Below are positions 1-31,238 of a stretch of DNA of 44,152 nucleotides, in pieces. Origin of the DNA: Actinomycetes bacterium (lineage in GTDB: Bacteria > Actinomycetota > Acidimicrobiia > Acidimicrobiales > Poriferisodalaceae); NCBI GenBank assembly GCA_024228575.1, contig JAAETH010000310.1, forward strand, positions 1-44,152, read 5' to 3'. The notes beneath the pieces are model-generated. The model was given only the letters and a program-made list of their open reading frames with translations. It was not told the DNA's origin and ran no database searches. The stretch's first letter is position 1. The number at the start of each line of letters is the position of its first letter. The translations under genes were made by a program, and so were the position numbers.

Positions 1-240
1 ACAAGAGCAACGACCCGAGGTGTGCCCAGGACCTCGACATCACCACTGCCCAACGCCACGGCCGTGTCTGCCTCGGTGACCGTCGCCTGCCTGGTTGCAG
101 CCGAGCCAATGCTGGGTCCATCCATGAGACGACTCTAGGCCCACCTATGGGGGTTCCTCGGTCGAGTGGCCCGTCGAGCGGGGCACCATCCAGGGAGGCC
201 AAACGTGGAGGAGCCCGAACAGCTCAACTAGACAGATGGC

Positions 241-11324: not shown

Positions 11325-12800
11325 CTAGACCTGGGCCGCACGCCCCGCCGCCAGCAGGCCTTCACACGTACGGGTGAGGATGCGCGCTGCTTCGATCGTT
11401 TCGCGGGGCATCAGGGGATTCTCGCCCAGACGCTGCCAGTAGGTGTGCTGGCCGATGGCCAATCTGGACAACTCGCCCGCCTCGGTGTTCTGGTCGGCCC
11501 CGAGCCGCTGATGAGCGAGCCCGCCATGAGTTCCGAGCAAACGTTCGGCCCTTTCGGCATCTGGTTCGGACATGTTCACGAATCCAGAGCGGATCGCATT
11601 CAGCAGCTGAACCTCTGCGAACTCGTGCACACTCGACATGATGCGCTCGAGCTCCACGTCGAATTCACGCGAGTTGACCCCGGGGACCGAGCTGACGACA
11701 CGGTCGAAGGTCAGCAGAGCAGATCTGGCCCTGAGAACGTCGCTGCGAGCCGTCAGATGGCTGTGGAGGATTCGTCGGAGTTCGCCGAGGCCGCTGCGAT
11801 CGACGAGCATGTTCGACAATTCGGTGCTGGTGGTGGCCCGTCCCTGGCGCAATAACACAAATGCCAGGCGAACGCCGAAGATGCCGAAGCGGTCTAGCAG
11901 TTCGGAGCGTTCGATCGGCGTGATTGGCAGATCGGTCTCCGCGTTGACAAACCTGTCGACGGTCAACATCAGAGGATCGACCGCTGATCGGTCAGCCTCT
12001 GCAAGCATCAGGAGGACGCGGAACTCGTCCTGGCGCAGGGTTCCGGCGGTTTCGGCGAGTAGTCCGGCTACTGGTATGACGGTTTGACACAGCCGCTTGA
12101 TCTTCGGGTCGGCTCCATAACGCTTCGATATCCGCCGCGCCGACGCGAGTGCATCCAGCCTGCCGACACCGATCTCGTCGGCCCTCGACAAGATGCCGAT
12201 CGAGTTGATGGCACTCGGCCTCGATGTTTCCTGGTCGTGGAACGCTTCGAGGAATCGGACGTCGCTAGCGTGCAGGTGCCGCATCAGGTACAACACAGCG
12301 TCGGTCGTGCTCGCTCCATCGTCTGGTGTGAGGAAGTCGCGGGTCCGGTCCGAGAGGTGTGTGCTGATCGAATCGATACCAGGCGTGTCGATGAGGGTCA
12401 CATCGGACAGAGCCGTCGATGGCCACTCGATTTCGAGGCGTTCGATCTGGTCGGTCGGGGTGCCTCTCAGATCGATGTTCAGCGAACCCTCCTCGCGGGT
12501 GAACGGCAGCTGAGCTGGATCGCCGGCATGAGGGTGCATCGTGACCCGATAGGTCGACCCGTCGCGGTACCAGGTGACCACCGTGGTGCACTCGCCAGCG
12601 TCGGTCGGGGCCAACCGTTCGCTCACGAGGGCGTTCAACAGTGTGGACTTTCCTGCCTTCACCTTGCCGGCGATGGCAACCCGAAGCGGCTGGTCGAGTC
12701 GCCGTTTTGCCTCGTCGATCTGTTGTTGGGCTCCCGTGCCCGCCACGAGGCGCGAAGCCAAACCAGCGAGCATCGACAGCTCATCGCTCAGGACCGTCAT
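11325..12800 (-). CDS. Dynamin-family GTPase, IniC-like
   Basis: 491 aa. G1 'IAGKVKAGKSTLLNAL' and 'LAPTDAGECTTVVTWY' follow the IniC-type N-terminal pattern, with G3 'DTPGIDS'. Size matches IniC (about 490 aa). It is the last gene of the ini-like operon. Confidence 0.85.
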   Translation of the reverse strand: MTVLSDELSMLAGLASRLVAGTGAQQQIDEAKRRLDQPLRVAIAGKVKAGKSTLLNALVSERLAPTDAGECTTVVTWYRDGSTYRVTMHPHAGDPAQLPFTREEGSLNIDLRGTPTDQIERLEIEWPSTALSDVTLIDTPGIDSISTHLSDRTRDFLTPDDGASTTDAVLYLMRHLHASDVRFLEAFHDQETSRPSAINSIGILSRADEIGVGRLDALASARRISKRYGADPKIKRLCQTVIPVAGLLAETAGTLRQDEFRVLLMLAEADRSAVDPLMLTVDRFVNAETDLPITPIERSELLDRFGIFGVRLAFVLLRQGRATTSTELSNMLVDRSGLGELRRILHSHLTARSDVLRARSALLTFDRVVSSVPGVNSREFDVELERIMSSVHEFAEVQLLNAIRSGFVNMSEPDAERAERLLGTHGGLAHQRLGADQNTEAGELSRLAIGQHTYWQRLGENPLMPRETIEAARILTRTCEGLLAAGRAAQV

Positions 12801-12812
12801 CGCAGCACCCGC

Positions 12813-12914
12813 GCCTTCTGGCCGGCCCTTTGGGCCGTCTCCGTGCGGCTGTGTCTTGGTCTCGCCTTCTGGCCGGCCCTTTGGGCCGTCTCCGTGCGGC
12901 TCGGTCGTGGCCGG
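12813..12914. repeat. 51-bp tandem direct repeat (2 copies) in the iniA-like/iniC-like intergenic region, each unit containing a small GGCCC-TTT-GGGCC hairpin
   Basis: gccttctggccggccctttgggccgtctccgtgcggct occurs at 12813 and again at 12864, a 38-nt perfect match with diverged 13-nt tails. The repeat fills the 115-bp gap between the two dynamin genes. Confidence 0.8.
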
Positions 12915-12915
12915 T

Positions 12916-14739
12916 TCATGACAGGACCTCTACCGAGGCCTTGAGGATGCGCTCGAGCTGATCGATCGAAGCATCGAGCTTCTTGATCTTCTCCTTGCGT
13001 TTGGCCTGGCCGGTCTTCAGCGCGACCTGGGTTGCCTTCAGCGACTCTGTGGCCGTTGTGGCCAGCTCCCTGGCCCTTTCGAGGTTCGTATCGCGCAGAT
13101 CTCTCTGGACCTGGCGAAGGGTGTCACGGCTGTGTTTCGTCACGCCGAAGACAACCTCATCGAGGTACTTCTTGATGCCCATCTTGGCTTGCTGGCGGCG
13201 CATCGTGAGCTGGCGTTCGCGCTCCTCCTTGGCGGCCTTGCGGCCCAGCAAACCCCCGACCGCCAGGCTGATGGGCCCGAAGGTAGCCAGTCCGACCAGC
13301 GAACCGAGCATGCCGAACATCAACATGCCGCCATAGCTCCCACGCATGCCCGTGAGCATCGACTGGGCATAGGAAGGAGCTTCGGCAACCTCGACGTCTA
13401 GGGTCTTTCGCCCGGCGAGGACCTCGTCGGGGGTTGCGACCTTCACGTCGGCGATGGCATCGAGCTCGAACACGTCGAGTACACGTTCCGACAACTCGAG
13501 GGCATCGCGTCGAAGGAGATGGTAGTTCTCGGCGATGTCTGCCATCAGCCGTTCCTCGACCATCGGGAAGAGCTCGTCGCCGATCTTGGCCGGATCGTTC
13601 TCGTCGATGAGCACATCGATCTCTGCGACGAGGGTCCGGGTTCGTGTCTTCAGGTCGTGGTCGGTGTTCGATGTCAGGTCAGAGATGCCGTCGTTGAGGA
13701 CAACCTGCCACCGCGATGCAGCGGCCTTCATGTTCTCGGCTCGCTCCTTGGCCTCCCGAGCCTTGGTCTCGAGTTCCTCTCGGCTCGCGGGGTCGGCAAG
13801 TACGTCTCGCATCGTGGTCTCGGTGTCGAGCAGCTGGCCGGCGACTGCTCTGACGTCCGTCATCGCTGCAGTGACGTGGATTGTCTCTGCCTCGGCGAGG
13901 ATCTTCTGTTCGACGCGCTCGACCAGGGCGGGGAAACCACTCTCGTCGTGCATCTCGGGGTCGTTCAGGTCGAGAGCCTTGGTTCGAAGTGGCGAGGCAA
14001 CAGCAAAGATGTCGATTTCGAGACCGGCGTTCGCGAGGTGTTGCTCGTTGAGTTCGAGGATCTTCCTCCAGCGCGGGTAGACATCGATCTTGCTCATGGC
14101 GCAGATGACGTTGGGGCAGCGTTCGTATGCGATGACCAGGAACTCGAGCTCGCTCGCTGTCAATTCCTGAGAGCTGTCGGTGACGAAGACAACAGCGTCG
14201 GTCATGGCCAGAGCGCCCATGGTCGCCTTGCCATGGGCCGACTCGAGGCCTCCGACGCCAGGGGTGTCGACCACACGCAACCCGGCTCGCAGGATCCGGC
14301 GGGGAATCCTGACCTCGACGGTGTGCACCTTCTGGTTGGTGCCTGCAATGTGACCCGAGACCACGAAGGCGGCCGCGTCGTTCAGCTTGATCTCGTGACG
14401 TACATCCTCGTCGGAGCCTTCGGGGCCGGCACAGGTGATCGAAGCTTCGGAGTGTTCGGCGTAGCCGATGACGGTTGCGACGGCCGTGGCCACGTCGTCG
14501 TCGACGGGACATACTGGCGCCTTCACCAGGGCGTTGACCAGGCTCGACTTCCCCTGCTTGAACTCGCCGATGACCAGGACGGTGACCTCGGGTTCGGCGA
14601 GTCGAGCTGTTGTGGTCCTGAGTCTTGTCACGAGGTCTGCGCGTTCGAGGCGGGTGGCTGCACCCTTGACAGCCTCGACGATTTCGGTGGCTCGATTGCG
14701 TCTTGATGTCTGCTGTTCGGTGTTCACATCTACGTCCAT
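12916..14739 (-). CDS. Dynamin-family GTPase, IniA-like (bacterial dynamin-like protein with membrane paddle)
   Basis: G1 'VIGEFKQGKSSLVNAL' and G3 'VVDTPGVGG'. A long helical stalk follows, with a hydrophobic hairpin near the C-terminus (MLMFGMLGSLVGLATFGPISLAVGGLLG). The track ORF extends to 14925, but those first 62 codons overlap the upstream gene, are low-complexity, and sit upstream of a hairpin/U-tract. The ATG at 14739 is therefore preferred. Confidence 0.85.
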   Translation of the reverse strand: MDVDVNTEQQTSRRNRATEIVEAVKGAATRLERADLVTRLRTTTARLAEPEVTVLVIGEFKQGKSSLVNALVKAPVCPVDDDVATAVATVIGYAEHSEASITCAGPEGSDEDVRHEIKLNDAAAFVVSGHIAGTNQKVHTVEVRIPRRILRAGLRVVDTPGVGGLESAHGKATMGALAMTDAVVFVTDSSQELTASELEFLVIAYERCPNVICAMSKIDVYPRWRKILELNEQHLANAGLEIDIFAVASPLRTKALDLNDPEMHDESGFPALVERVEQKILAEAETIHVTAAMTDVRAVAGQLLDTETTMRDVLADPASREELETKAREAKERAENMKAAASRWQVVLNDGISDLTSNTDHDLKTRTRTLVAEIDVLIDENDPAKIGDELFPMVEERLMADIAENYHLLRRDALELSERVLDVFELDAIADVKVATPDEVLAGRKTLDVEVAEAPSYAQSMLTGMRGSYGGMLMFGMLGSLVGLATFGPISLAVGGLLGRKAAKEERERQLTMRRQQAKMGIKKYLDEVVFGVTKHSRDTLRQVQRDLRDTNLERARELATTATESLKATQVALKTGQAKRKEKIKKLDASIDQLERILKASVEVLS

Positions 14740-14740
14740 G

Positions 14741-14784
14741 AAAAGAGAGAACTCGGGTCCCGACCGGTGGCCGGGACCCGAGTT
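14741..14784 (-). terminator. Intrinsic terminator/attenuator-like hairpin + U-tract between the iniB-like and iniA-like genes
   Basis: The minus-strand RNA would read ACUCGGGUCCCG-GCCACCGGU-CGGGACCCGAGU. That is a perfect 12-13 bp GC-rich stem with a 9-nt loop, followed immediately by UUCUCUCUUUU and then the ATG of the iniA-like gene. Confidence 0.55.
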
Positions 14785-14812
14785 TGTCGCTAAGTCGGGT
14801 TGGAAATCCAGC

Positions 14813-16462
14813 TCAGTCGAGGATCTCCACGTCGCCAGTGTCGAAGTTGGCTTCTTCGGTGACGTCGACACTGTCGGCGACCGCAGTGCCGAAGTCCTCG
14901 GACAACGCCGAGCCGTGGTCAGCAACGTTCGAATCGTCGATCGTCGTGAGATCGGTGTCGATCTCGGTGCTGATGTCGGTGTCGATCTCGGTGTTGATGT
15001 CGGTGTCGTTGTCCTCGAGGACGTCGTTGTCTTCGATGGTGGTGGTGTCGTTGTCCTCGAGGACGTCGTTGTCTTCGATGGTTGTGGTGTCGTTGTCTTC
15101 GATGGTTGTGGTGTCGTTGTCCTCGAGGGTTGTGGTTGTGGTGTCGTTGTCCTCGATGGTGGTCGTGGTGGTGTCGTTGTCCTCGTTCGTCGTCTCGACG
15201 TCGGTGACGGTCTGGTCGCCCTGGAGGTTCAGGTTCAGGTCGTCGCCGCTCGAGATGTCGCCGATGCTGAGGTCGGTCTGGTCGCCGGCGCCCGTGTTGA
15301 CATTGCCTTCGCTGTCGATGGCGTCGCCACCAGCTGCCTGGGAACCGTCGGTGGCGGTGATGTTGCCGTCGCCGACCACTGTGGTTCCGCTGCCACCGCT
15401 GGCGTCGACCTGGGTGACCTCGGAGCCGTCGGTTGCGACGGTGGCGTCGCCACCGCTGGCGTCGATATCGGTCACCTCCGAACCGTTGGTTGCCACGTTG
15501 CCGTCGCCGGTGTTGGTGGTCATGTCGCCGCCAACCTCGCCGGTGTTGGTGCCTGTGACATCGCCGTCGCCGCTGTTGACCACGCCGTCGACATCGCCGG
15601 TCACCGTTCCACCGGACACATCACCTTGGACGACCGTCGAGCCGATCACCTCACCGGTGATCGCACCCTCGACTGGGCCGTCGGCTGCGATGGCGCCGTC
15701 GGTTGCGATGTTCGAGTCCTCGACTTCGGCGTTCTCGCCTACCTGAACCGCTCCATCGCCCGCTGTTTGGATGTCGTTCTCGACGTCGAAGTTCTTGGCG
15801 CTCACATCGCCGTCGATGTTTGTGCTGGCGTCGATGTTTGTGTCGCGATCGTCGACGTTGTTGACCGTGCTCTGGTCGATGTGGTTGGTGACGTTCGTGA
15901 CGTAGTAGGTGATCTGTTGCGACATCGCCTCGACAGGGTCGGTGGCGTCGACAACCGGGGGAGCCGGAGGAGGCGTCGGTGCTGCAGTCGGAGCGGGTGC
16001 AGGAGCAGGAGCAGGTGCGGGGCTCGAGACCGGACCTGTGGTGGTCGGCGATGCAGCGATGCCGGCATCGACCTGGCTGACGCCACCGATATCGCCGCCG
16101 GCGACGTTGGTGTCGCCCTCGACGGCTTGGTTGATGACCGGGCCCGACTGGACCGTGGTGTCGGCAACGTCGACACCCTGATCGGCGGCGTTGGAAACGG
16201 CCGCCGCCTGGTTCGTCGCCGTGGTCATGTCCATGTCGTTTGACGAGGTTGTGACCGGAGCCAGCATGCTTGCCTGCTCGGGAGGAAGCTCTTCGCTCAT
16301 CAGCGTTACAGCTTCGTGCAGGTCTTCGGGGGTCAGGTCGTCGAGGCCGTCTTGGACCAGCATCTCCTGCCGGCCGTCGGCGTCGGCTTCTGCCCAGGCC
16401 TGCTGCTTTTCTCCGAACATGATGTCGTAGAGCTTGTCGAAGATCATGGTGTCATCCGCCAT
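14813..16462 (-). CDS. Highly acidic Asp/Thr/Gly/Val-rich tandem-repeat protein in the IniB position (IniB-like by context only)
   Basis: Start ATG at 16462 is preceded by AAAGAGG (the track ORF starts at 16519). A short N-terminal segment 'MADDTMIFDKLYDIMFGEKQQAW' and an APAPAPAP linker lead into about 400 aa of low complexity with octapeptide repeats (IEDNDTTT/LEDNDTTT, IDTDISTE). It is the first gene of the operon, followed by two dynamins, as in iniB-iniA-iniC. Composition differs from the Gly/Ala-rich M. tuberculosis IniB, so this is a positional analogue only. Confidence 0.6.
   Translation of the reverse strand: MADDTMIFDKLYDIMFGEKQQAWAEADADGRQEMLVQDGLDDLTPEDLHEAVTLMSEELPPEQASMLAPVTTSSNDMDMTTATNQAAAVSNAADQGVDVADTTVQSGPVINQAVEGDTNVAGGDIGGVSQVDAGIAASPTTTGPVSSPAPAPAPAPAPTAAPTPPPAPPVVDATDPVEAMSQQITYYVTNVTNHIDQSTVNNVDDRDTNIDASTNIDGDVSAKNFDVENDIQTAGDGAVQVGENAEVEDSNIATDGAIAADGPVEGAITGEVIGSTVVQGDVSGGTVTGDVDGVVNSGDGDVTGTNTGEVGGDMTTNTGDGNVATNGSEVTDIDASGGDATVATDGSEVTQVDASGGSGTTVVGDGNITATDGSQAAGGDAIDSEGNVNTGAGDQTDLSIGDISSGDDLNLNLQGDQTVTDVETTNEDNDTTTTTIEDNDTTTTTLEDNDTTTIEDNDTTTIEDNDVLEDNDTTTIEDNDVLEDNDTDINTEIDTDISTEIDTDLTTIDDSNVADHGSALSEDFGTAVADSVDVTEEANFDTGDVEILD
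14935..15190. repeat. Intragenic tandem repeats (21/24/42-bp units) encoding octapeptide repeats of the acidic IniB-like protein
   Basis: Near-identical units are visible directly (gtcgttgtcctcgaggacgtcgttgtcttcgatggtKgtggtgtcgttgtc...). They encode IEDNDTTT/LEDNDTTT repeats on the minus strand. A second array (ggtgtcgatctcggtgYtgat) encodes the IDTDISTE repeats. Confidence 0.85.
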
Positions 16463-16703
16463 TGTCGTGCCTCTTTCGTGCTTCTCGGCGCCCGGCGCCG
16501 TGTTGTTGTGCATCCACACCGTTGTTGGTGTGTGACATCAACGTACGGAGAATCCGATCCGAGGTCATCGGGGAGAATCCACCCTTGTCGTCGGGTAGGT
16601 GGGAGCCCGATCCCCCTAGGCGTCGATGGGGGATTGGGCGATGCCCCGTAGGGGGTTCGGGGGGTGCTTGGGGGACAACCCCTCGCCGGACCCACCGTTG
16701 TGG
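16463..16703 (-). promoter_or_regulatory. Promoter/operator region of the ini-like operon: palindromes, GGAGAATCC direct repeat and a G-run cluster
   Basis: A 240-bp non-coding gap between the CBS gene stop and the iniB-like start. Contains CACACC-N6-GGTGTG, GGAGAATCC twice about 30 bp apart, and ATCCCCC-N11-GGGGGAT. Plus-strand G-runs: GGGGG-N3-GGG-N12-GGGGG-N3-GGGGGG-N5-GGGGG (about 16617-16672). Confidence 0.45.
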
Positions 16704-18308: not shown

Positions 18309-21300
18309 TCATTGTCGGCCGAGGGCGTCGGCAATTCGACCCAGCGCTGCAACGACGTCGGCCGCGGGGTCGGCCGTTGCCCTGGCGAAGTTCGCCTTGA
18401 TCGCCTTCCAGCGCTTCTCATCTGTCGCGTCGAGGGTTCCTCGAAGGGCAGCCAGGGCCAGCAGGTTCTGCTCGGCCCTGTCGGTCAACGTCTGGGCTTC
18501 GGACGCGTAGTGATCGTCGATGACGGCCGCCAGTTCATCGTCGGTCATGGCCGGAACGATTCGCGACGATATTCGAGCCATGTTGCGGTACGAACCTTGG
18601 AGAAGGAACGGGGGAGCTTCCCGATCGGCGTCGGCGCTCGCGGCCGAGTCGACGTAGGCGTCGTTGACCTGCATGACCACGGTTGCGGCTCGATCGAGCA
18701 ACTCGAGAACCCGAACGGTCTCATCGAGCTCGGAGGAATCCCACCGATGATCGAGTCCATCGGAGCTGACGGCTCTGCGTCCGCGCGACATGGCGACCAT
18801 CACCTCGACATCGTCGATCAGTTTCGTCGACCTGGGGGCAATCGCTGGGCAGGCGGTCACGCTGTTCTCGAGATACGACAGTGCGAATTCGGCGGCGTGT
18901 TCGTCGGCGACATCGCCGAGGTTGTACACGTCGGCACGGTTCACGAGCATGTCGGGCAACTCGAACCGCGAACCGGCGGTCGAGTAGGGGTTGCCGGCCA
19001 TGACGATGGCGAATCGTTTGCTACGCAGATCGTAGGTGCGGGCTTGTCCGGCGTGTACTCCCTCGATGCGACGGGTTGCGTCGGCGAGCGGGATGAAGCG
19101 AGACAGGAACTCGGGATTCGTGAATTGGATGTCGTCGATGAACAACACGACATTGCGAGCCATCGCCAGTGCCAGGTTGACCTTCTCCACCTCGGCCCTG
19201 GCCGTTGCGTTGGGGGCGTCGGCGGGATCGAGCGATGTTGTGGCGAAACCGAGAGCGGGGCCGTTCACCTTCACCATCAGCAACCCAAGGCGTGCTGCCA
19301 TCCAAGACATGAGGGTCGTCTTGCCGTAGCCGGGGGGTGAGGTCAGGACCAGGAGCCCCGACCGACTGAGGTCGTTCGAGTCGACGGTACCCAGCTGCCG
19401 AGCCAGGTTGGCGCCGACGAGGGGAAGGAGCGTGCGGTCGATCAGGCGGTTGCGAACAAAACCGGCCATCACCACCGGCCGGTGAGAGTCGAGATCGATG
19501 TCGTCGCGGACCGCTGAAGTCACGCCACGGCGCAGTTCCTGATACGCAGGCCATCGGGTGGCCATCTCGTCGAAGAGCGGGCCGACCCGTGCCGCCAACT
19601 CGTCCAGCCGAACCGAGATCTGCCCCTGGATGATGTGGCGGTGGTCGCTGACCAGACCACTTGCTGTCACGGCTCCCGAAGTCGGCTGTTCGAAGTGGGC
19701 GATGCCCGGGGTGGCGAGGATTGCGGCAGCCTCGTCGACATCGAAGTCGAGGCGTGCGAGCCGGGGATTGGCTGCGACAAAAGCGCTGAGCCACTCGGCG
19801 AGGTGGGTGTAGCGCTCGTAGAGGTCGGTGCTGTCGATCGATGTGAGGACAACATCACGAATCCGAGACTCGACCGAAGTCTCGAACTCGTCGACCAGCT
19901 CGATGGCCGTCGATGTTGCCGGCAATAGCCCGTCGGTGGGACGGAGTTGGTCGCAGATGTAGCCAGCGGCCACCCTGCAGTCGCGGCGCGACAGAGTCGG
20001 GACGATGTTGGCGAGGTCTTGGGACACCGTTCTCTGCAGACGGTCCGACACCGTGTGGGCGTCGAAGGAGTCGAGAGCGACTCGGGCGGCCTGTACACCG
20101 GCCCCCAGCGCCTGCCGCTGCTGATCGTCGAGTTCGCTGAGAAACAGGCGACCGATGGCCCGCGCGGAACCTGGATAGCCGACACCGTCGGTGCTGCCAG
20201 TCGTCAACAGGGCGGTCAAGAGAACGGCGGCATCGTGATCGTGAACCCCGATCTCGTACCCCTCACCGTGTCGACGCTCGGCGTGTGAGCGAACTCGTTC
20301 GGCGATGTGTTCGGGTATGGCAGCTGCGCTACGCAGTTCTGACACCTTCGACCCAGAAGCGGCATCGTGGTAGACCGCCCAGGCGAGATACTCACATCTG
20401 GCGACCTCTTGTGATTCCGACGGGTAGGAGCGGTTCAGCAGGTCGGCAAATTCCGACAGCTCGTCCGTGACGTCGACCGAGAGATCGGTTCCTGTGATAT
20501 CGACACTCACGCGCCCATTTGATGTCGACATCACGGTCTCGAAGGGTTGGTGATTGGGTGCGAATCGAAACGGGCCGAACCTCAGGGCTCCGTCGTCGTC
20601 GCTGAGGTCCGAGCGATCGCGGACAGTACGACGGGCGGCTTCGGCTCCGGCTCGGAGGGCATTCTTGAGCTCGGCGGCCTGACCCGATTCGCCCAGCTCG
20701 TCCAACTCGCCGGCCAGATCGCGAACCCGGAGCACCATCTGATCGGCCGCGAATAGCGAGGCGACCTCTGCTTCGTCTTCTGCTTCCTCGGCGCGGCGCA
20801 GGATCGTGACGAGCAACCGCTCGCCCGCATCGACAAGTCGTTTGGTTCTCTGTGCCCTCTGATCGACGAGTTCGGAGCGACGTGAGCCGAAGACCTCGTT
20901 CATTCGGTCGCGCAATTCGATGATTCGGATCAGCCGGTCTGGGTCTTCTCCGTGGCGACTCTCGAGGCGTTCGGCGTTGACGAGAAGTCGAGCCAGCTCG
21001 GTGTCGACCTCGTCGGGAGTTGTGGTCGCCATGACCGCCCCCGACAGGGTCTGTTCGAGCAACGCCACCTCGGCGTCGAAGGCTTCTGCCGTTTCGTTGT
21101 CGGCCAGCTCGCGGCGCCTGGCTTCGAGCACAGCGCGCGACCTGTTCGACGCGGCTGTGATGTCGGCAACCCGGCGCACGATGCGGGTACGTGCGGTCGG
21201 ATCGACATTGTCGAGTGCCCCGACAGCGTCGACCACTGCGTCCAGATCTGACGTCACGACCGCCAACCGCGCGGCCGTCTCGGCGACCACCCCGGCCGTC

Positions 21301-23147
21301 GAGGCCTGTGTTCCCTCGATGGTCAGGTCGTCCAGGCGTGTTCTGAACTCGTCGAACGCCGTGTTGTCGTCGAGCACCTCACCGGCTCGCTCGGCCAGAG
21401 CGGTGAGAGACTTGTCGAGATCGGTGATCAGATCCACGATTGCGTCGTCGTCGACCTCGGGGATGTCTTCGAGGAGCGTCACCTCACCGCGCGCACGTCT
21501 GAGGGACCCCAGCGCAGACACAACATCTGTCGGTGTTGTTGCGTTACCGGAAGCAGCGATCTGCCTGCCCACCGAACGTCTTGCTTCGTCGATGCGGGCC
21601 GCAGCATCGGCTCTGAGCCGGCGGACCTTTGTGTACTCGTCGACCAACAGACCGGCGGTCGATGCGGTGTCGCGCATCGCGGCGTGGAGGTCGGTGGCCT
21701 CGGGGTCGGCCAACCAGAGGTTTGTGTCGAGCGCTCGGCGGGCGGCGATGATCAGTGCCTCCCAGGTGCGCTCGCTCGGGTCGGACTCGTCGAGCAGACG
21801 ACCCACGTCGAATACATCGGCCAGGCCCGACACGAGATCGGCGTTGCCTACTCGTGCCACCCAGCCATCGTCACTAGGAGCACTCGACGTGTGGTCGTCG
21901 TCGACGAATGGGGTTGTCCACCACTGGATCGGGTGAACCCGCCTCGGCTCGGCATCGTCGGCTCCGCCCCGGAACAGGACGGTGTCGCCGTTGTCGAACG
22001 TCGCGAATCCGTGGCAAGGAACGACCTGGTTGATCTCGCGTCTGACCAGGTTGTACGGAGCCAGCAGGTATTCGCCCTTGTCGCGTTGGTGGAACACGTA
22101 GAGCAGGTCTTCGCCGTTCGGCGAGGCCACGATCTCCTCGAAGATCATCCCGTCGGTGCCGAGATCGAACACTCGGGTTCCCGCCGTGGCCAGGTGATAG
22201 CCGCCGGGGAACACGACACCCTCACCTCCGGGCAACACCCGGACCGCCTTGCCGATGGCGTCGACGCGTTCGACCGAACGCGTGCGTCGACTGTAGATGT
22301 AGAAGCGAGCGGGTTCGTTGTAGAGACCGATCCTGAGTAGGACGATCTGGTCACCGACTCGGGCGAAGGCCACAGACACATCGGCGAGCGATTGGCCGGC
22401 GTCGTCGACGGCTTCCTCGATCGCTACAAACCCTCCATGGGTCCCGTCCTCGACTCTCAGCTGAAGGCGACCATTGCGGAAGCCGACGAACACCTCGTCC
22501 AGGACGGCTACTGCGGGATGGGCGCCGGCTACCTGGTCGTCTCGTCCACAGGCAACCCACGAGAAATCGTGGGCGCTGGGCCACCGATAGTCGCGGTCAC
22601 CGCGTGCGTCGACGAAGGAGACCCGACCCGCCGTGTCCACCGTCCAGCGCAGGACCACCAGGTCCTCGGTTCGTTCGCCGATGCTGAACGCTGCCAGCAT
22701 CTGTCCGCCGGCGACCCTCAGATCAACAAAGCGGGCCTTGCCGTAGAAGCGGTGGAGCTTGTCGAATTCCTCGCGAAACACCGGGTCTGAGAGGAAGTTC
22801 CGCTCATCGTCGGGTTGCAGCGGCAAGAGCTCGTCGTCGCCGCGCCGATAGAGAGCGAACACGTGCTCGGGTTCAACCTTTCCGAGGTCGAGTTCGACGT
22901 TGTACCCGAGCACCACGAGGTTGCCCACATGGGCCATGTCGCGCGGCGAGCAGGTCAACTCGGTTCGCAGGCGGTCGGATCTCGTGAGCCTGACAGGCAC
23001 AGAACCAAATGTCTGGATGCGTTCGGCATCGATCGCCGAAGCCGCCGTGAGAGCGTCGTCGACGCGTTGTGCCAGTCGGCGTCTCAGCAGGTCATAGGAC
23101 GCTCCGTCGGGAACGCCCGGGTCGTCAACCACCTGTGACCGCCTCAA
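18309..23147 (-). CDS. Giant (1612 aa) uncharacterised protein: N-terminal beta-rich region, long alpha-helical/coiled-coil middle, C-terminal AAA_5 (MoxR/McrB/dynein-like) ATPase module
   Basis: A single uninterrupted ORF with uniformly high GC3. Walker A 'LTSPPGYGKTTLMSW', Walker B 'NVVLFIDDIQ' and the sensor/AAA_5 block 'RFAIVMAGNPYSTAGSRFELPDMLVNRADV' sit in the last ~350 aa. The start overlaps the flotillin stop (TTG at 23147, or GTG at 23132 with GAGG upstream). No confident family assignment for the N-terminal 1200 aa. Confidence 0.8.
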   Translation of the reverse strand: MRRSQVVDDPGVPDGASYDLLRRRLAQRVDDALTAASAIDAERIQTFGSVPVRLTRSDRLRTELTCSPRDMAHVGNLVVLGYNVELDLGKVEPEHVFALYRRGDDELLPLQPDDERNFLSDPVFREEFDKLHRFYGKARFVDLRVAGGQMLAAFSIGERTEDLVVLRWTVDTAGRVSFVDARGDRDYRWPSAHDFSWVACGRDDQVAGAHPAVAVLDEVFVGFRNGRLQLRVEDGTHGGFVAIEEAVDDAGQSLADVSVAFARVGDQIVLLRIGLYNEPARFYIYSRRTRSVERVDAIGKAVRVLPGGEGVVFPGGYHLATAGTRVFDLGTDGMIFEEIVASPNGEDLLYVFHQRDKGEYLLAPYNLVRREINQVVPCHGFATFDNGDTVLFRGGADDAEPRRVHPIQWWTTPFVDDDHTSSAPSDDGWVARVGNADLVSGLADVFDVGRLLDESDPSERTWEALIIAARRALDTNLWLADPEATDLHAAMRDTASTAGLLVDEYTKVRRLRADAAARIDEARRSVGRQIAASGNATTPTDVVSALGSLRRARGEVTLLEDIPEVDDDAIVDLITDLDKSLTALAERAGEVLDDNTAFDEFRTRLDDLTIEGTQASTAGVVAETAARLAVVTSDLDAVVDAVGALDNVDPTARTRIVRRVADITAASNRSRAVLEARRRELADNETAEAFDAEVALLEQTLSGAVMATTTPDEVDTELARLLVNAERLESRHGEDPDRLIRIIELRDRMNEVFGSRRSELVDQRAQRTKRLVDAGERLLVTILRRAEEAEDEAEVASLFAADQMVLRVRDLAGELDELGESGQAAELKNALRAGAEAARRTVRDRSDLSDDDGALRFGPFRFAPNHQPFETVMSTSNGRVSVDITGTDLSVDVTDELSEFADLLNRSYPSESQEVARCEYLAWAVYHDAASGSKVSELRSAAAIPEHIAERVRSHAERRHGEGYEIGVHDHDAAVLLTALLTTGSTDGVGYPGSARAIGRLFLSELDDQQRQALGAGVQAARVALDSFDAHTVSDRLQRTVSQDLANIVPTLSRRDCRVAAGYICDQLRPTDGLLPATSTAIELVDEFETSVESRIRDVVLTSIDSTDLYERYTHLAEWLSAFVAANPRLARLDFDVDEAAAILATPGIAHFEQPTSGAVTASGLVSDHRHIIQGQISVRLDELAARVGPLFDEMATRWPAYQELRRGVTSAVRDDIDLDSHRPVVMAGFVRNRLIDRTLLPLVGANLARQLGTVDSNDLSRSGLLVLTSPPGYGKTTLMSWMAARLGLLMVKVNGPALGFATTSLDPADAPNATARAEVEKVNLALAMARNVVLFIDDIQFTNPEFLSRFIPLADATRRIEGVHAGQARTYDLRSKRFAIVMAGNPYSTAGSRFELPDMLVNRADVYNLGDVADEHAAEFALSYLENSVTACPAIAPRSTKLIDDVEVMVAMSRGRRAVSSDGLDHRWDSSELDETVRVLELLDRAATVVMQVNDAYVDSAASADADREAPPFLLQGSYRNMARISSRIVPAMTDDELAAVIDDHYASEAQTLTDRAEQNLLALAALRGTLDATDEKRWKAIKANFARATADPAADVVAALGRIADALGRQ

Positions 23148-25165
23148 CTCTCGCCGGCGTCGATGATGTTGCCGAGGGGACGATCACCGAGTCCCGATTC
23201 GCCAACAGCGTTCCTGAGAGCCTCGACCAGGCCGCCGGCCTCGGAACCGAGACCGCCAGCGAGGCGGTTGACGAAGTCGGCGACGGTGAGGTCGCGTATG
23301 CCGGCGGCGCCAAGGCCACCGAGACCTTCGGAGATGTCGGCGATGATGCTGGCATCACCTTCGAGGTAGGGCTTGAGCATGCGGCGCCCGGCGTTTCCAC
23401 TCGAGACGAAACCATCGATCGCCTGACCGTGACCGGCCGCCGACAGGATCCTTTCGACGATCCCCTCGTCGGAGACGATCTGCATGTCCGCGTTGGACAA
23501 CGACTCGCCCAGAGCACTTGCTGCCGACCGGGCCACATCGGCTCGTGCCTCGATGGCCGCAAGTTCGATCTCGCGCTCCGCGTCGAGGCGCAGCCTGAAC
23601 TCTTCGTGACCCTGACCGGCCGCGGTCATGGCTCCGACACCTTCGGACTTGGCCTTCAGGCCTTCGCCCTCACCCTTGAGGCGCGACCGGGTGGCCTCAC
23701 CTTCTGCGTCTCCGAGTTCGCGAACAGCCTCGGCATCGGCGCGCTTGACATCGACTTCGGCGATGCCGGTGGCCTTGATGGCATCGGCGCGTTCGCGTTC
23801 GACCTGCACCGAGGCAAGGCCTTCGGCGGCTGACTCGGCCTGGAAACCCTCGGCCCTGCGTTTTGATGCCTGCATCTCCTGGGACGCTGCTTCGGCTTCG
23901 GCCCTCGCCAGGATTGTTCGGCGCTCGGCCTCCGAAGCTGCGGCCTGTTTGTCGGCATCTGCTTCCTTGACCCTGGCGATGAAGTTGGCCTCTGCCGAAC
24001 CCTCTGCGGTACGGACCTCTGCGTCGGCATGGCGCTTGGCTTCCTCGACGACCCGGAGGCTGGCGATCTCCTCTTCCCTCTCGGCAACACCCAGATCGGC
24101 CTCGACACGTTCGCGCGATATCTCGGCCAACTCGCGAGCCTGGACCTCTTTCTCCTTGCCTGCTTCTGCCACCGCTGTTTCGCGGCCGACAGCGGCCAGA
24201 TGGCGATCGCGCTCGATCTCTTCGGTTTGTACGGCGATGACCCGCTGGCGGTTGGCGTCGGCGAGGGCGATCTCGCGGTCCTTGTTCTGGTCGGCAACAC
24301 CGACCCCTTGTTCTGCCGCGATATTGGCCTCTTCGGCGGCGCGTCTGGACTCGGCCTCCACCTCGGCAGCAGCGGCCTGGGCCCGAGCTTCCACAGTGCG
24401 GATTTCCTGCTGCTGTCGCGCTTCGGCTTCGGCCCTATCGCGCTCCATCTCGAACACGGCCTTGTCGGCGTCGGTTGTGCGGCGAGTTGTTTCCTCGCGT
24501 TCGCGTTCGCGAGCATCGTTGGTGCGAATGTGCTGATCGGCTGTGCGTTCGGTGATCTTGCGGATGCCGTCCGCGTCGAGGATGTTGTCGGGGTCGAGGG
24601 CTTCGACAGGTGTCTGCTCGAGATAGTCGATGGCGACGTCCTCGAGAACGTAGCCGTTGAGATCCTGGCCGATGATCCCGATGATCACGTCCTTGAACTC
24701 TTGGCGCGATGTGTACAGGTCCTCGAAGTTGAACTCCTTGCCCGCGGACTTCAACGCCTCCGAGAACTTCGCTGCGAACAGCTCGCGAAGCGTGCCCTGG
24801 TCTGACGCCCTATCGACGCCGACCTGTTGAGCGACTCTGACGACGGACTCCTCGGTCTTGTCGACCTTCACGTAGAACTCGACTGCGATGTCGGCCCTGA
24901 CGTTGTCCTTGCAGACCAGGCCATCCTTGCCTCGACGGTCGATCTGGATGTTCTTCACCGAGATGTCCATCGCCTCGGCCTTGTGAACCACGGGGATGAC
25001 GACCTGGCCTGTGAATGTGACCACGACCTCTTTCCACTTGGACACCACCAAGGCGTGTCCCTGTGGCACCTTCCGAAAAAGCCTCGTCACCAGCAGGCCA
25101 AGGCCCAGTGTGACGATCACCAAGATCATGATGACCACACCCACCGCCGTCAGCACTCCACCCAT
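23144..25165 (-). CDS. Flotillin-like SPFH/Band-7 protein (YqiK/FloT-type)
   Basis: N-terminal TM helix (GVLTAVGVVIMILVIVTLGLGLL), then the SPFH domain ('GHALVVSKWKEVVVTFTGQVVIPVVHKAEAMDISV...'). A long Ala/Glu/Arg-rich coiled coil (EA-repeat flotillin tail) follows. Start taken at the ATG that overlaps the NfeD stop (TGATG). Confidence 0.9.
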   Translation of the reverse strand: MGGVLTAVGVVIMILVIVTLGLGLLVTRLFRKVPQGHALVVSKWKEVVVTFTGQVVIPVVHKAEAMDISVKNIQIDRRGKDGLVCKDNVRADIAVEFYVKVDKTEESVVRVAQQVGVDRASDQGTLRELFAAKFSEALKSAGKEFNFEDLYTSRQEFKDVIIGIIGQDLNGYVLEDVAIDYLEQTPVEALDPDNILDADGIRKITERTADQHIRTNDAREREREETTRRTTDADKAVFEMERDRAEAEARQQQEIRTVEARAQAAAAEVEAESRRAAEEANIAAEQGVGVADQNKDREIALADANRQRVIAVQTEEIERDRHLAAVGRETAVAEAGKEKEVQARELAEISRERVEADLGVAEREEEIASLRVVEEAKRHADAEVRTAEGSAEANFIARVKEADADKQAAASEAERRTILARAEAEAASQEMQASKRRAEGFQAESAAEGLASVQVERERADAIKATGIAEVDVKRADAEAVRELGDAEGEATRSRLKGEGEGLKAKSEGVGAMTAAGQGHEEFRLRLDAEREIELAAIEARADVARSAASALGESLSNADMQIVSDEGIVERILSAAGHGQAIDGFVSSGNAGRRMLKPYLEGDASIIADISEGLGGLGAAGIRDLTVADFVNRLAGGLGSEAGGLVEALRNAVGESGLGDRPLGNIIDAGES

Positions 25166-25794
25166 CAGTTGTCTCCTGTCTCGTTGAAGATCTCTTTGTC
25201 GCGAACCACCTTGTAGATGCGCAGCTCGCGGTCCCACCCGATAAGTCGGACCAGATCACCCGCCGTCAAGCCCCTGTCGGCCGGTGCCCGAACCTCTATT
25301 CGCGACATCGTGCCGTCGTCCCAGGTGGCGTCGGCGTATCCGAACGTCTCGTCGACTCGTCCCGATCGGATGACGGCCTCGTGACCGATCAACTCGTCGT
25401 CGTGTGGTGCCCGAGCCGTTTCCATCATCGAACCGAGGGGCCTTGCGACCTTCGCTCCGAGGTACAGGGCGGAAACGAGTGAGACCACGAAGATCAAGAC
25501 TGAAACGCCGACGAGGGCTATCCCTTCGACGGGGTCGAGCAGGAACATGGCCGCGATGACGGACACGAACCAGCCGATGAGGCTGACGATGGTGATCACC
25601 ACAAGCGGTGGAACCCCGGCCATGCCGACGCCATCGAGGGCATCGCCGAGCGTTCCGTCGAGCGCATCGCCATCGAAGTCGAGCACTCCGAGGGCACCGA
25701 CCAACCACAAGACGAGTGAAATCGCCAATGGGACCCCGAAGACGAGGGCAACCGGCGAGGTCGCCGCATCCATGAATTCAGTCATCGGCTCCAC
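25165..25794 (-). CDS. NfeD-like membrane protein (YqiJ-type) with C-terminal OB-fold
   Basis: 209 aa with several TM helices followed by an OB-fold-like C-terminus ('GHEAVIRSGRVDETFGYADATWDDGTMSRIEVRAPADRGLTAGDLVRLIGWDRELRIYKV'). Lies immediately upstream of the flotillin gene, the canonical NfeD-flotillin pair. Confidence 0.8.
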   Translation of the reverse strand: MEPMTEFMDAATSPVALVFGVPLAISLVLWLVGALGVLDFDGDALDGTLGDALDGVGMAGVPPLVVITIVSLIGWFVSVIAAMFLLDPVEGIALVGVSVLIFVVSLVSALYLGAKVARPLGSMMETARAPHDDELIGHEAVIRSGRVDETFGYADATWDDGTMSRIEVRAPADRGLTAGDLVRLIGWDRELRIYKVVRDKEIFNETGDN

Positions 25795-30047: not shown

Positions 30048-30063
30048 GCGAACATGTGTTCGA
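30048..30063 (+). promoter_or_regulatory. Actinobacterial LexA/SOS box (Cheo-like) at dinB
   Basis: GCGAACATGTGTTCGA matches the mycobacterial/actinobacterial LexA consensus TCGAAC-N4-GTTCGA in 15 of 16 positions. It is a perfect palindrome across CGAAC/GTTCG and overlaps the dinB start codon. Confidence 0.75.
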
Positions 30064-31238
30064 TGTACCTACACGCCGATCTCGATGCGTTCTACGCCTC
30101 GGTCGAGCAACGCGACAACCCGAGGCTCCGCGGCAAGCCGGTCATCGTCGGGGGTGGCGTCGTGCTCGCCGCCAGCTACGAGGCCAAACGTCGTGGGGTC
30201 AAGACGGCCATGGGTGGCCGCGCGGCCAGGGCGGTGTGTCCCGACGCAATCGTGGTGCCGCCGCGTATGGACGCCTACACAACTGCCTCCAAAGCGGTGT
30301 TCTCGATCTTCCGGGAAACATCGCCCTGGGTAGAGGGCCTGTCGATCGACGAGGCGTTCCTCGATGTCTCGGGATTGCGACGTTTGTCCGGCTCACCAGA
30401 ACAGATCGCCGCTCACCTGCGGGACCGCGTGAGAGACGAGGTCGGCCTCGCCATCACCGTAGGTGTGGCCAATACCAAGTTCCTGGCGAAGGTCGCCAGC
30501 GGCGTGGGTAAGCCCGACGGGCTGCTCCTCGTCGAACCGGGCTACGAACTCGCGTTCCTCCACCCGCTGACTGTCGAGCGGTTGTGGGGAGTAGGCCCCG
30601 TCACCGCCCGCAAGCTGAACGACCGTGGGCTGACCACGGTCGCCCAGGTCGCCCAACTCGACGTCGGTGTACTGGTCGGTCTCCTCGGCAAGGGGCAGGG
30701 CCAGCACCTTCACGCCCTCGCCCACAATCTCGATCCGAGACCGATTCGGGTCGGTCACAGGCGAGGGTCAATCGGCTCACAGCGTGCCCTCGGACGGATG
30801 AATCCATCTCGAGATGAGTCCCAGGTGATGCTCATCGGCCTCGTCGATCGCATCACCCGGAGAATGCGCCGCGCCGAGCGAGTCGGGCGGACCGTGGTCT
30901 TGCGGATGCGCTACGACGACTTCACCAAGGGCACTCGCAGTCACACCCTGGACGAGGCGACCAGCGAGACAGCACCGATCCTCGCATCGACCCGAATGCT
31001 TCTCAACAGGGCGTGGCCGATGCTCGACGAGAGAGGTCTGACGATGATTGGTGTGTCGGTCACAAACCTGAGCAATGCCAATGCCGTTCAGTTGACCCTT
31101 CCGCTGGGTCCGCGGGCACGACCATCGGTCGATTCGGCATTCGACGAGATCCGCGACAAGTTCGGTACCAACAGCTTGAAGCGTGCCACCCACCTCGGCG
31201 AAAGTCAGCATTCGATCATGCCGATGCTCCCCGATTGA
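30063..31238 (+). CDS. dinB: DNA polymerase IV (Y-family translesion polymerase)
   Basis: '[31 protein letters not shown]' is the canonical DinB N-terminus. Palm, finger and little-finger order is as in DinB. Start placed at the ATG at 30063 (the track gives 30054). An SOS box overlaps the start. Confidence 0.9.

Follow-up and report, generated by a model that had tools for sequence, protein, structure and literature searches.

The minus strand of the 44,152-nucleotide stretch analysed here (the window) very probably carries the Acidimicrobiia-type copy of a widespread, self-contained three-gene module, in the PspA-less form of the operon described by Ravi et al. in 2024. With equally high confidence, the module consists of a YqiJ/YuaF-like NfeD-class protein with three transmembrane (TM) segments, a long YqiK-like flotillin with one TM segment, and a giant soluble protein built from a propeller, a rod, a middle domain and an AAA+ module. 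The giant is most likely an ATP-driven factor that would remodel the flotillin (or PspA) assembly as part of membrane-stress maintenance. For this explanation as a whole, identity and mechanism taken together, we estimate a probability of about 0.5. The features of the locus are given in Table 1.

Table 1. Positions of the three genes in the window and of the domains and motifs of the giant protein
Feature	Position	Strand	Length and basis
Small membrane protein, YqiJ/YuaF (DUF1449, NfeD-like) type	25165..25785	-	206 aa; YqiJ profile match, hydropathy
SPFH/flotillin-like protein, single N-terminal TM anchor	23144..25165	-	673 aa; Band_7, YqiK homology
Giant soluble protein, database name 'DNA repair ATPase'	18309..23132	-	1,607 aa; Pfam, homologue alignment
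DUF3686 region (residues 30-470): N-terminal helix, then beta-propeller of ~6-7 blades (residues 48-406)	21723..23045	-	Pfam, AF2, Foldseek
Helical rod (residues 424-843), including DUF7902 (residues 592-675)	20604..21863	-	AF2, Pfam
Conserved middle domain (residues 865-1140): small beta sheet and helical bundle	19713..20540	-	AF2, invariant columns
AAA+ alpha/beta core (residues 1229-1404)	18921..19448	-	motifs, AF2 fold
C-terminal helical lid and extension (residues 1405-1607)	18312..18920	-	AF2 model
Walker A, S1265-PPGYGKTT	19314-19340	-	giant AAA+ core
Walker B, VLFIDD	19131-19148	-	giant AAA+ core
Sensor-1 N1381 and candidate Arg finger R1399	18936-19016	-	giant AAA+ core
LQGSYRNM motif, invariant	18579-18599	-	putative MoxR-type sensor-2

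Three tightly packed, co-directional minus-strand ORFs between positions 18309 and 25785 encode, in this order, the small membrane protein, the SPFH protein and the giant. The small gene begins with an ATG at 25785 preceded by GGAG, and its TGA (25167-25165) is overlapped by the ATG of the SPFH gene (25165-25163) to give TGATG; the packing and this overlap agree with the three-gene operon with overlapping codons proposed in the initial annotation. Translation from the overlapping ATG yields an SPFH product of 673 aa, not the 697 aa of the longest ORF that had been taken for the flotillin. An in-frame TTG at 23147 shares bases with the SPFH TGA (23146-23144), and a GTG at 23132 lies 11 nt past this stop with GAGG 8 nt upstream. 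For the giant gene, the GTG is preferred as start because of this GAGG and because the 1,607-aa product read from it matches the deposited protein with 100% identity. The giant gene thus does adjoin the SPFH stop as initially described, with a product of 1,607 aa instead of 1,612. A scan of the locus for promoters and terminators gave results no better than shuffled sequence. The neighbours of the triad in the window are ordinary metabolic genes; the window also has a gene for a DinB polymerase, 7 kb from the triad. Three dynamin-like genes located 2 kb downstream were considered as part of the module and rejected, since such genes occur near the triad in 0 of 80 loci.

The giant aligns across 97-100% of its length with homologues of 1,550-1,930 aa and contains no internal stop, so the ORF is a single gene as first called; the frameshift or gene fusion raised as a possible artefact is rejected by the full-length conservation. 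Pfam searches matched DUF3686 (E 1.6e-139), DUF7902 (E 6.5e-15) and AAA_5 (37.5 bits, cutoff 22), NCBIfam assigned no family to any of the three proteins, and the P-loop stretch was the sole match of the giant in a PDB sequence search. Two AlphaFold models have pLDDT values of 87 and 87.7. In the propeller domain, about 28 strands are modelled at pLDDT >90, and Foldseek matches include CyRPA, prolyl oligopeptidase and WD40 structures (E 1e-5 to 1e-4). The rod is a succession of helices, the longest of 58 residues, in which Ala, Arg, Glu and Leu make up 50% of residues. Of the coiled-coil-like middle of some 700 aa in the initial description, about 420 residues form this rod and the remainder is a separate conserved domain with neither a Pfam nor a PDB sequence match. 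This middle domain carries a motif that is invariant in the homologue alignment (G958, Y959, G962, H964, D965, D967). No hydrophobic segment, and hence no TM helix, was seen in a hydropathy scan of the giant.

From its motifs and modelled fold, the C-terminus of the giant is a MoxR/midasin-class AAA+ module, for which a hexamer and ATP hydrolysis are predicted only. The fold is that of the MoxR class (AAA_5 / helix-2-insert clade), with Walker A, Walker B, sensor 1, the candidate Arg finger and the putative sensor 2 all conserved. The closest modules are those of CbbQ, NorQ, midasin and dynein, with CbbQ and NorQ as the top structural matches. All catalytic motifs are invariant in alignments of 16-79 homologues, as are Q1512, G1513, S1514, Y1515 and R1516; the LQGSYRNM motif containing these residues we take to be sensor 2, from the 'G-x-S-x-R' pattern of MoxR/ChlI proteins. 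Walker B is VLFIDD. Walker A is SPPGYGKTT, its first Ser being invariant, and not the GPPGYGKTT given earlier. With DD in place of DE in Walker B and Ser at the first position of Walker A, the giant could be a slow, switch-like ATPase and not a motor. The conserved genes include no VWA/MIDAS partner, and no VWA-like alpha/beta domain appears in the models of the giant. This lack of a VWA/MIDAS partner or domain, together with the DD of Walker B, distinguishes the giant from CbbQ, NorQ, RavA and midasin/Rea1; midasin/Rea1 moreover has six fused AAA+ modules against one in the giant, whose binding domain would be the N-terminal propeller.

After its TM anchor, the SPFH protein has an SPFH domain at residues 32-209 and a helical stretch rich in Ala, Glu and Arg (about 215-540); its C-terminal part (541-673) is conserved. 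It scores 26.3-26.4 bits against Pfam Band_7 (cutoff 23.6) and is related to E. coli YqiK across the SPFH and coiled-coil regions (BLASTP E 8e-35; profile comparison 99.9%, E 1.8e-32). Only 10 of 35 orthologues reach Band_7 at E 0.01, which marks a divergent SPFH subfamily. None of the 35 matches Pfam Flot (PF15975), and the score against the NCBIfam FloT equivalog NF058507 is 16.2 bits (cutoff 700); by these two comparisons the protein is not a FloT orthologue. A PDB sequence search with it gave no match. Basic residues follow the TM helix, which suggests that the SPFH body lies in the cytoplasm, as the giant would.

In the small protein, overlapping hydrophobic stretches in a hydropathy scan are read as three TM segments, accompanied by an acidic loop and a beta-rich C-terminal domain. 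The Pfam NfeD (PF01957) and YqiJ models matched neither this protein, even at E 10, nor its 37 orthologues. A profile of the 37 orthologues aligned with E. coli YqiJ in hhalign (87% probability, E 3.8e-6), and the Hymenobacter orthologue carries a DUF1449 annotation. The protein is accordingly best classed, on profile similarity, as a remote YqiJ/DUF1449-type homologue; the gene had been called 'NfeD', a name for which Pfam gives no match.

Linkage of these genes is not accidental. At all 75 giant-family loci having upstream DNA, an SPFH orthologue lies upstream of the giant gene on the same strand, and in 74 it is directly adjacent, in agreement with the tight flotillin linkage proposed at the outset. 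The objection raised there, that homologues of the giant might generally lie apart from flotillin genes, does not hold for these loci. The SPFH orthologues at related loci are 37-75% identical. Triad loci span Actinomycetota, Myxococcota, Gamma- and Betaproteobacteria, Acidobacteriota and one Clostridia-labelled MAG; the Bacteroidota and Deinococcota members were found on plasmids, and megaplasmid copies include that of pQBR103. Only these three genes are common to the loci. A conserved fourth gene was sought without success, the downstream genes varying by lineage. The 4-nt overlap occurs in just 13 of the 75 loci and many gaps measure 50-400 nt, so the fixed stoichiometry once deduced from the codon overlap does not follow. 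The lengths of giant and flotillin show no supported co-variation (Spearman rho 0.22, p 0.06), which leaves the idea of a 'molecular ruler' unsupported. Phage-borne copies had 0 matches in 50,697 phage records, and a phage origin was rejected.

The association of flotillin and giant is already known, having been published in 2024 as a comparative-genomics prediction (Ravi et al., mSystems, PMC11237479); the view that the giant is not a described flotillin partner is thereby superseded. The PspA-associated Band-7/YqiJ-YuaF/beta-propeller-coiled-coil-AAA+ operon of that work has the same three proteins, domain architectures and gene order, an example being ANH61663.1 of Dokdonia donghaensis. The window likewise encodes a 3-TM YqiJ/YuaF-type protein and a Band_7 protein homologous to YqiK with a single N-terminal TM, and membership of its triad in the same family is confirmed. 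Compared with the full operon, the window copy is without PspA, CesT/Tir and phospholipase D. Operons without CesT/Tir-PspA are termed 'abbreviated' and are widespread (PMC11237479). DUF2170(CesT/Tir)-PspA genes stand ahead of the triad in Pseudoalteromonas, Thiodiazotropha, Aquabacterium and Hymenobacter (loci L072, L077 and L080 and a Hymenobacter plasmid), and the dyad is absent from the 44-kb window, which makes this copy an abbreviated one. The position of DUF2170-PspA ahead of the triad in some genomes ties the module to the membrane-stress machinery. Ravi et al. devote a few predictive sentences to the operon, without a structure model, the AAA+ clade, the link to Pfam DUF3686 or experiments. 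Our literature searches found no experimental work on any triad member (interaction, ATPase activity, phenotype or expression), nothing on 'DUF3686' or 'PF12458', and no paper linking 'DNA repair ATPase' with flotillin/SPFH.

Among better-known systems, E. coli YqiJ-YqiK and B. subtilis YuaF-FloT are likewise pairs in which the gene of a TM-anchored flotillin is closely preceded by that of a small protein with several TM segments and a beta domain at its C-terminus. Unlike the window triad, E. coli K-12 has no third gene after yqiK. The window flotillin is 120 residues longer and has its own conserved C-terminal region; its subfamily mostly escapes the Pfam Band_7 and Flot models, and the window protein scores far below the FloT equivalog cutoff. 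In HflK/C-FtsH, as is proposed for the window triad, an SPFH scaffold works together with an AAA+ ATPase at the cytoplasmic membrane. FtsH is a membrane-anchored AAA+ protease of the classical clade, whereas the giant is soluble, of MoxR class, without a protease domain and with a propeller and a rod.

The mechanism that we propose is tentative, with somewhat less than even odds as a whole. Cages attached to the membrane are known for SPFH proteins, and in HflK/C such a cage surrounds an AAA+ machine (PMC11260169). Like the solved SPFH complexes, the flotillin, aided by its small partner with a putative OB domain, would sit as a cage or scaffold against the cytoplasmic side of the membrane. 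The giant would oligomerise through its AAA+ ring, so that propellers on long rods could reach this scaffold; we infer the propeller-flotillin contact from synteny only. ATP binding and hydrolysis would then drive the building, opening or disassembly of the flotillin structure, and of the PspA structure too where PspA is present, with a mechanical logic akin to midasin/MoxR proteins pulling on a bound partner and unlike that of a threading unfoldase. Membrane-microdomain or membrane-repair scaffolds would thereby be kept dynamic under envelope stress. The role in microdomain remodelling or quality control put forward in the initial annotation is thus plausible for the giant. Several points count against the remodelling mechanism: the Walker B and Walker A variants may point to a slow switch instead of a motor, MoxR proteins normally pair with a VWA partner and none is found here, the middle domain with its HD-H-D motif could hold a different, possibly enzymatic, activity, and the giant and flotillin lengths do not co-vary. 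A bolder and more doubtful version sees in the giant the first AAA+ motor that is dedicated to an SPFH scaffold and does not act by proteolysis, with rod-mounted propellers that grip, open, close or strip the flotillin cage and a GY..G.HD.D middle domain that could add a second activity. If true, bacterial flotillin microdomains would be remodelled in an ATP-dependent manner and not be self-organising. The control and function of bacterial flotillin assemblies are still unclear, and a constant neighbour of one flotillin subfamily provides an experimental handle, the triad being present in tractable organisms such as Proteus mirabilis, Vibrio campbellii, Streptomyces, myxobacteria and the Pseudomonas megaplasmid pQBR103.

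Two other readings are each unlikely, and to a similar degree. By analogy with Vps4 acting on ESCRT-III, the AAA+ module might act on a polymer of PspA/IM30 (ESCRT-III type), with a membrane platform as the only contribution of the flotillin and the YqiJ-like protein and with PspA encoded elsewhere in genomes like this one. In several Proteobacteria, and also in Hymenobacter, DUF2170-PspA genes are indeed joined to the operon at its head, and Ravi et al. proposed ESCRT-like analogies and suggested that abbreviated operons act with PspA encoded elsewhere (PMC11237479). As in Vps4/ESCRT-III and PspF-PspA, the genes of an AAA+ ATPase and of an ESCRT-III-superfamily protein, here PspA, are linked in some genomes. 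However, tblastn with proteobacterial PspA queries found no PspA beside the triad in loci outside Proteobacteria and Bacteroidota, nor is there a further shared gene cluster; PspA is missing from the window as well, and the PspA link is optional, while the flotillin is invariably adjacent. The giant also differs from Vps4 and PspF in belonging to another AAA+ clade (MoxR/midasin, not the classical clade of Vps4) and in having no MIT or sigma-54 interaction domains. In the second of these readings, the flotillin cage would corral membrane-protein clients, which the ATPase would mature, extract or pass on, for example to intramembrane proteases, in parallel to FtsH in HflK/C without a fused protease. 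The HflK/C-FtsH precedent (PMC11260169), the resemblance to CbbQ and NorQ, MoxR proteins being maturation chaperones, and the rhomboid or M50-type proteases that adjoin some triads are consistent with it. These protease neighbours are nevertheless sporadic and not conserved, and a consensus reading found no aromatic residue after strand beta2 at the expected pore loop.

Much less probable than either is a role in anti-phage defence or another conflict, whereby the SPFH protein and the NTPase would detect an infection or abort it. Conflict systems do include large propeller-bearing NTPases, and the distribution of the triad is patchy across phyla, with copies on megaplasmids such as pQBR103. 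Against this, PADLOC reported no fitting system: the giant matched only RmrT (E 6e-4 over 66 residues) and mad8 (E 0.018), both weakly and in part, and the other two proteins matched nothing. No copy was found in the phage records, no effector domain (nuclease, protease, TIR etc.) is present, the neighbouring genes are metabolic, and the operon is linked to PspA membrane-stress genes.

Many public-database sequences of the giant family are named 'DNA repair ATPase', a name whose basis we did not find and which we consider unsupported. The function that it implies, following NCBI and Pfam naming, is highly improbable: the name itself, weak P-loop and fold similarity to RuvB and the nearby DinB gene speak for it, but Pfam, NCBIfam and PDB searches detected no DNA-binding or repair domain in the giant, and its conserved neighbours are membrane proteins.

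The three genes of the triad are co-directional on the minus strand (see table). The TGA of the small membrane protein gene (25167-25165) and the ATG of the SPFH gene (25165-25163) have one base in common, TGATG, which bears out the overlap described in the initial annotation. For the giant gene, either a TTG overlapping the flotillin stop or the GTG at 23132 had been proposed as the start. An in-frame TTG at 23147 does overlap the SPFH TGA (23146-23144); it is the second choice, since the GTG has the upstream GAGG and matches the start of the deposited 1,607-aa protein P0001 (contig JAANST010553364.1, GCA_024449685.1), to which the product is 100% identical. The longest ORF of the SPFH gene, 697 aa, was rejected as an upstream over-extension because homologues align from the ATG and the deposited protein has 673 aa. 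An SDR gene starts 28 nt past the giant gene stop; no conservation of it was found at other triad loci.

Genes of the triad (window positions) and parts of the giant protein (residues)
Feature	Position	Strand	Basis
Small membrane protein gene, 206 aa	25785-25165	minus	ATG start, GGAG upstream
SPFH gene, 673 aa	25165-23144	minus	Homologue alignment from ATG and deposited annotation
Giant gene, 1,607 aa	23132-18309	minus	GTG start, GAGG 8 nt upstream
N-terminal helix	res 11-42		AlphaFold2
Beta domain, about 28 strands	res 48-406		AlphaFold2
Long-helix run, single helices of up to 58 residues	res 424-843		AlphaFold2
Middle domain, small sheet and helical bundle	res 865-1140		AlphaFold2
AAA+ alpha/beta core	res about 1229-1404		AlphaFold2
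Helical lid and extension	core end to C terminus		AlphaFold2

The giant ORF is a single real gene: it contains no internal stop, and alignments with homologues of 1,550-1,930 aa cover 97-100% of its product, which disposes of the concern that a frameshift had fused two or more genes. Mean column identity was 48% among 16 diverse members. Locus L021 (6019-12752), in a MAG that carries the label uncultured Actinoplanes, has no ORF for the giant longer than 1,275 aa, and this one begins 968 nt past the SPFH stop; the tblastn alignment nonetheless covers residues 5-1602, and the short ORF is probably due to a frameshift or MAG assembly error.

Pfam matches in the giant protein were DUF3686 (residues 35-475 in the 1,612-aa frame, E 1.6e-139), DUF7902 (E 6.5e-15) and AAA_5 (37.5 bits; cutoff 22). 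Two AlphaFold2 models, of residues 1-1150 and 1101-1607, were built from a 79-sequence alignment, with pLDDT values of 87.0 and 87.7, respectively. Foldseek matches of the beta domain were beta-propellers (CyRPA, prolyl oligopeptidase and WD40 proteins). Modelled strands at 1355-1360 and 1363-1368, between the Walker B and sensor-1 strands, resemble the pre-sensor-1 hairpin that characterises this AAA+ superclade. The hydropathy scan found no hydrophobic segment, and the protein is therefore probably soluble. An invariant motif, G958-Y959..G962.H964-D965.D967 ('EGYxRGVHDHDAA'; window about 20232-20261, minus strand), lies in the middle domain, partly (residues 958-961) in a low-confidence loop of the model, and has no Pfam or PDB match; it is a possible metal- or ligand-binding site.

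The ATPase is of the MoxR/midasin class, and its motifs are intact and invariant in the alignment rather than degenerate: Walker A, S1265-PPGYGK1271-TT (window 19314-19340), Walker B, D1333-D1334 in 'LFIDDIQ' (window 19131-19148), N1381 as sensor 1 and R1399 as candidate Arg finger. An invariant Q-G-S-Y-R1516 in the C-terminal part is probably a MoxR-type sensor 2. The motifs deviate from the usual form in two ways: Walker A begins with Ser, previously read as Gly, and Walker B is DD rather than DE. DnaA, a slow, switch-like ATPase, has a similar 'IDDIQ' Walker B; the Asp-Asp Walker B and Ser-initial Walker A of the giant may indicate slow, switch-like ATP turnover.

The partners of the giant protein are membrane-anchored. 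By hydropathy, the SPFH protein has one hydrophobic anchor, at the N terminus, with basic residues behind it; it also has an Ala/Glu/Arg-rich helical region of 325 residues and a conserved C-terminal stretch of 130 residues. By sequence comparison it is a homologue of the E. coli flotillin YqiK (BLASTP E 8e-35; profile probability 99.9%, E 1.8e-32), yet of a distinct, longer subfamily, because Pfam Band_7 was reached by only 10 of 35 orthologues (barely by the window copy, 26.4 against 23.6 bits), Flot by none of the 35, and the FloT equivalog model gave 16 bits where 700 are required. In Streptomyces phaeochromogenes a second, canonical flotillin (Band_7 and Flot, 477 aa) with a 171-aa neighbour lies 5 kb from the triad (L002:20002-22070), so the triad flotillin there is an additional paralogue and not the sole flotillin. 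The small protein shows three hydrophobic segments, and its C terminus is rich in beta strand. A profile of 37 orthologues matched E. coli YqiJ (87% probability, E 3.8e-6) and NCBI labels the Hymenobacter orthologue 'DUF1449 family', while neither the window copy nor the orthologues matched Pfam; the earlier name 'NfeD' is thus right by class, not by family model. In some Streptomyces loci this protein is shorter, for example 146 aa with similarity at the N-terminal part only.

The triad is a conserved, self-contained module. A pattern scan in which each GTDB species was represented by one genome returned at least 585 relatives, and 80 loci were kept, from Actinomycetota, Myxococcota, Gamma- and Betaproteobacteria, Acidobacteriota and one Clostridia-labelled MAG. 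Five open at a contig edge and give no information here; each of the 75 others has an SPFH orthologue (37-75% identity) upstream in the same orientation, directly adjoining the giant in 74, contrary to the possibility that homologues generally lack this neighbour. The sole separated pair, in a Myxococcales MAG (L066:1557-7920), has the SPFH gene 6.4 kb upstream, with an OmpA-like lipoprotein bearing thrombospondin-type repeats and two other genes between. The small protein was detectable in 60-66 loci. When all ORFs were clustered, the triad genes alone were common to the loci, the remaining high-count clusters being shadow ORFs inside them. The same context was seen in Ilumatobacter coccineus, S. 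phaeochromogenes and two metagenome contigs. The SPFH stop overlaps the giant's reading frame by 4 nt in 13 loci and gaps of 50-400 nt occur in many others; coupling is therefore common, not universal, and has no bearing on the fixed stoichiometry once read from the overlap. DUF3686 matched 560 of 1.84 billion cluster representatives (50% identity, E <= 1e-3) and was N-terminal in nearly all of the 150 matches listed. Copies were seen on a few megaplasmids and chromids (Hymenobacter, Deinococcus, Streptomyces, P. fluorescens pQBR103), and none was found in 50,697 phage records.

The initial annotation was right about a three-gene flotillin operon with a giant ATPase and about its linkage, but the giant is not an undescribed flotillin partner, as the operon appears in Ravi et al. 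2024 (PMC11237479) and identity with that family was verified. There, CesT/Tir-PspA is combined with three further genes in operons, abbreviated forms that keep just the last two or three genes are more widely distributed, and the Dokdonia row of the table has the triad's gene order. The window triad is a new Acidimicrobiia-type case of an operon kind already recognised in silico, in the abbreviated form without the CesT/Tir-PspA of the full operon. In Pseudoalteromonas (L080), Thiodiazotropha (L077) and Aquabacterium (L072), the triad comes straight after genes for DUF2170 (YjfI-type, placed in the CesT/Tir superfamily by Ravi et al.) and PspA_IM30. The Hymenobacter plasmid annotation reads 'chaperone Tir - PspA/IM30 - DUF1449 - hypothetical - DNA repair ATPase'. 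On plasmid pQBR103 of P. fluorescens SBW25 (L088, record 89658-97641) the triad directly follows DUF1190 and glutathionylspermidine-synthase-family genes (YjfM-, YjfC-like), polyamine genes that echo the second operon class of Ravi et al.; in its 1,748-aa ATPase, tblastn similarity to the window protein was confined to the C-terminal third. Literature searches found no experimental work on a triad member, and for SPFH biology the triad is a good lead to follow by experiment rather than the discovery of a new kind.

MoxR proteins and midasin pull on bound partners by ATP, without threading them. Closed cages attached to the membrane are built by SPFH proteins, and that of HflK/C surrounds an AAA+ machine (PMC11260169). 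We tentatively favour (probability about 0.4) a mechanism in which the giant would oligomerise through its AAA+ ring, its rod-mounted propellers would contact the flotillin assembly, perhaps at the subfamily-specific C-terminal region, and it would drive scaffold assembly, opening or disassembly during membrane stress. Among the rival readings, Vps4-like action on PspA seems unlikely, and so does a client-directed chaperone or extractor working inside the cage or at it. A defence system is improbable. DNA repair can practically be dismissed, the database name 'DNA repair ATPase' being unsupported.

About 2 kb downstream of the triad, tandem minus-strand genes of 568 aa (no Pfam match), 607 aa and 491 aa (both Dynamin_N) at window 11325-16519 look like a bacterial dynamin-like membrane-remodelling cluster, which was not found near the triad in the 80 other loci. 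On the plus strand, the wider region is bordered by a LuxR-type regulator (AAA_16 and GerE, 859-871 aa; window 8654-11269) and by a DinB/IMS-family polymerase (window 30054-31238); neither is conserved beside the triad. Sporadic, non-conserved intramembrane proteases occur near triads at L069:13216-13782, L077:13234-13878, L084:338-1345 and L002:22956-24086, the types being Rhomboid (Xenorhabdus, Ilumatobacter), M50B-like (Thiodiazotropha) and M50 with CBS (Streptomyces).
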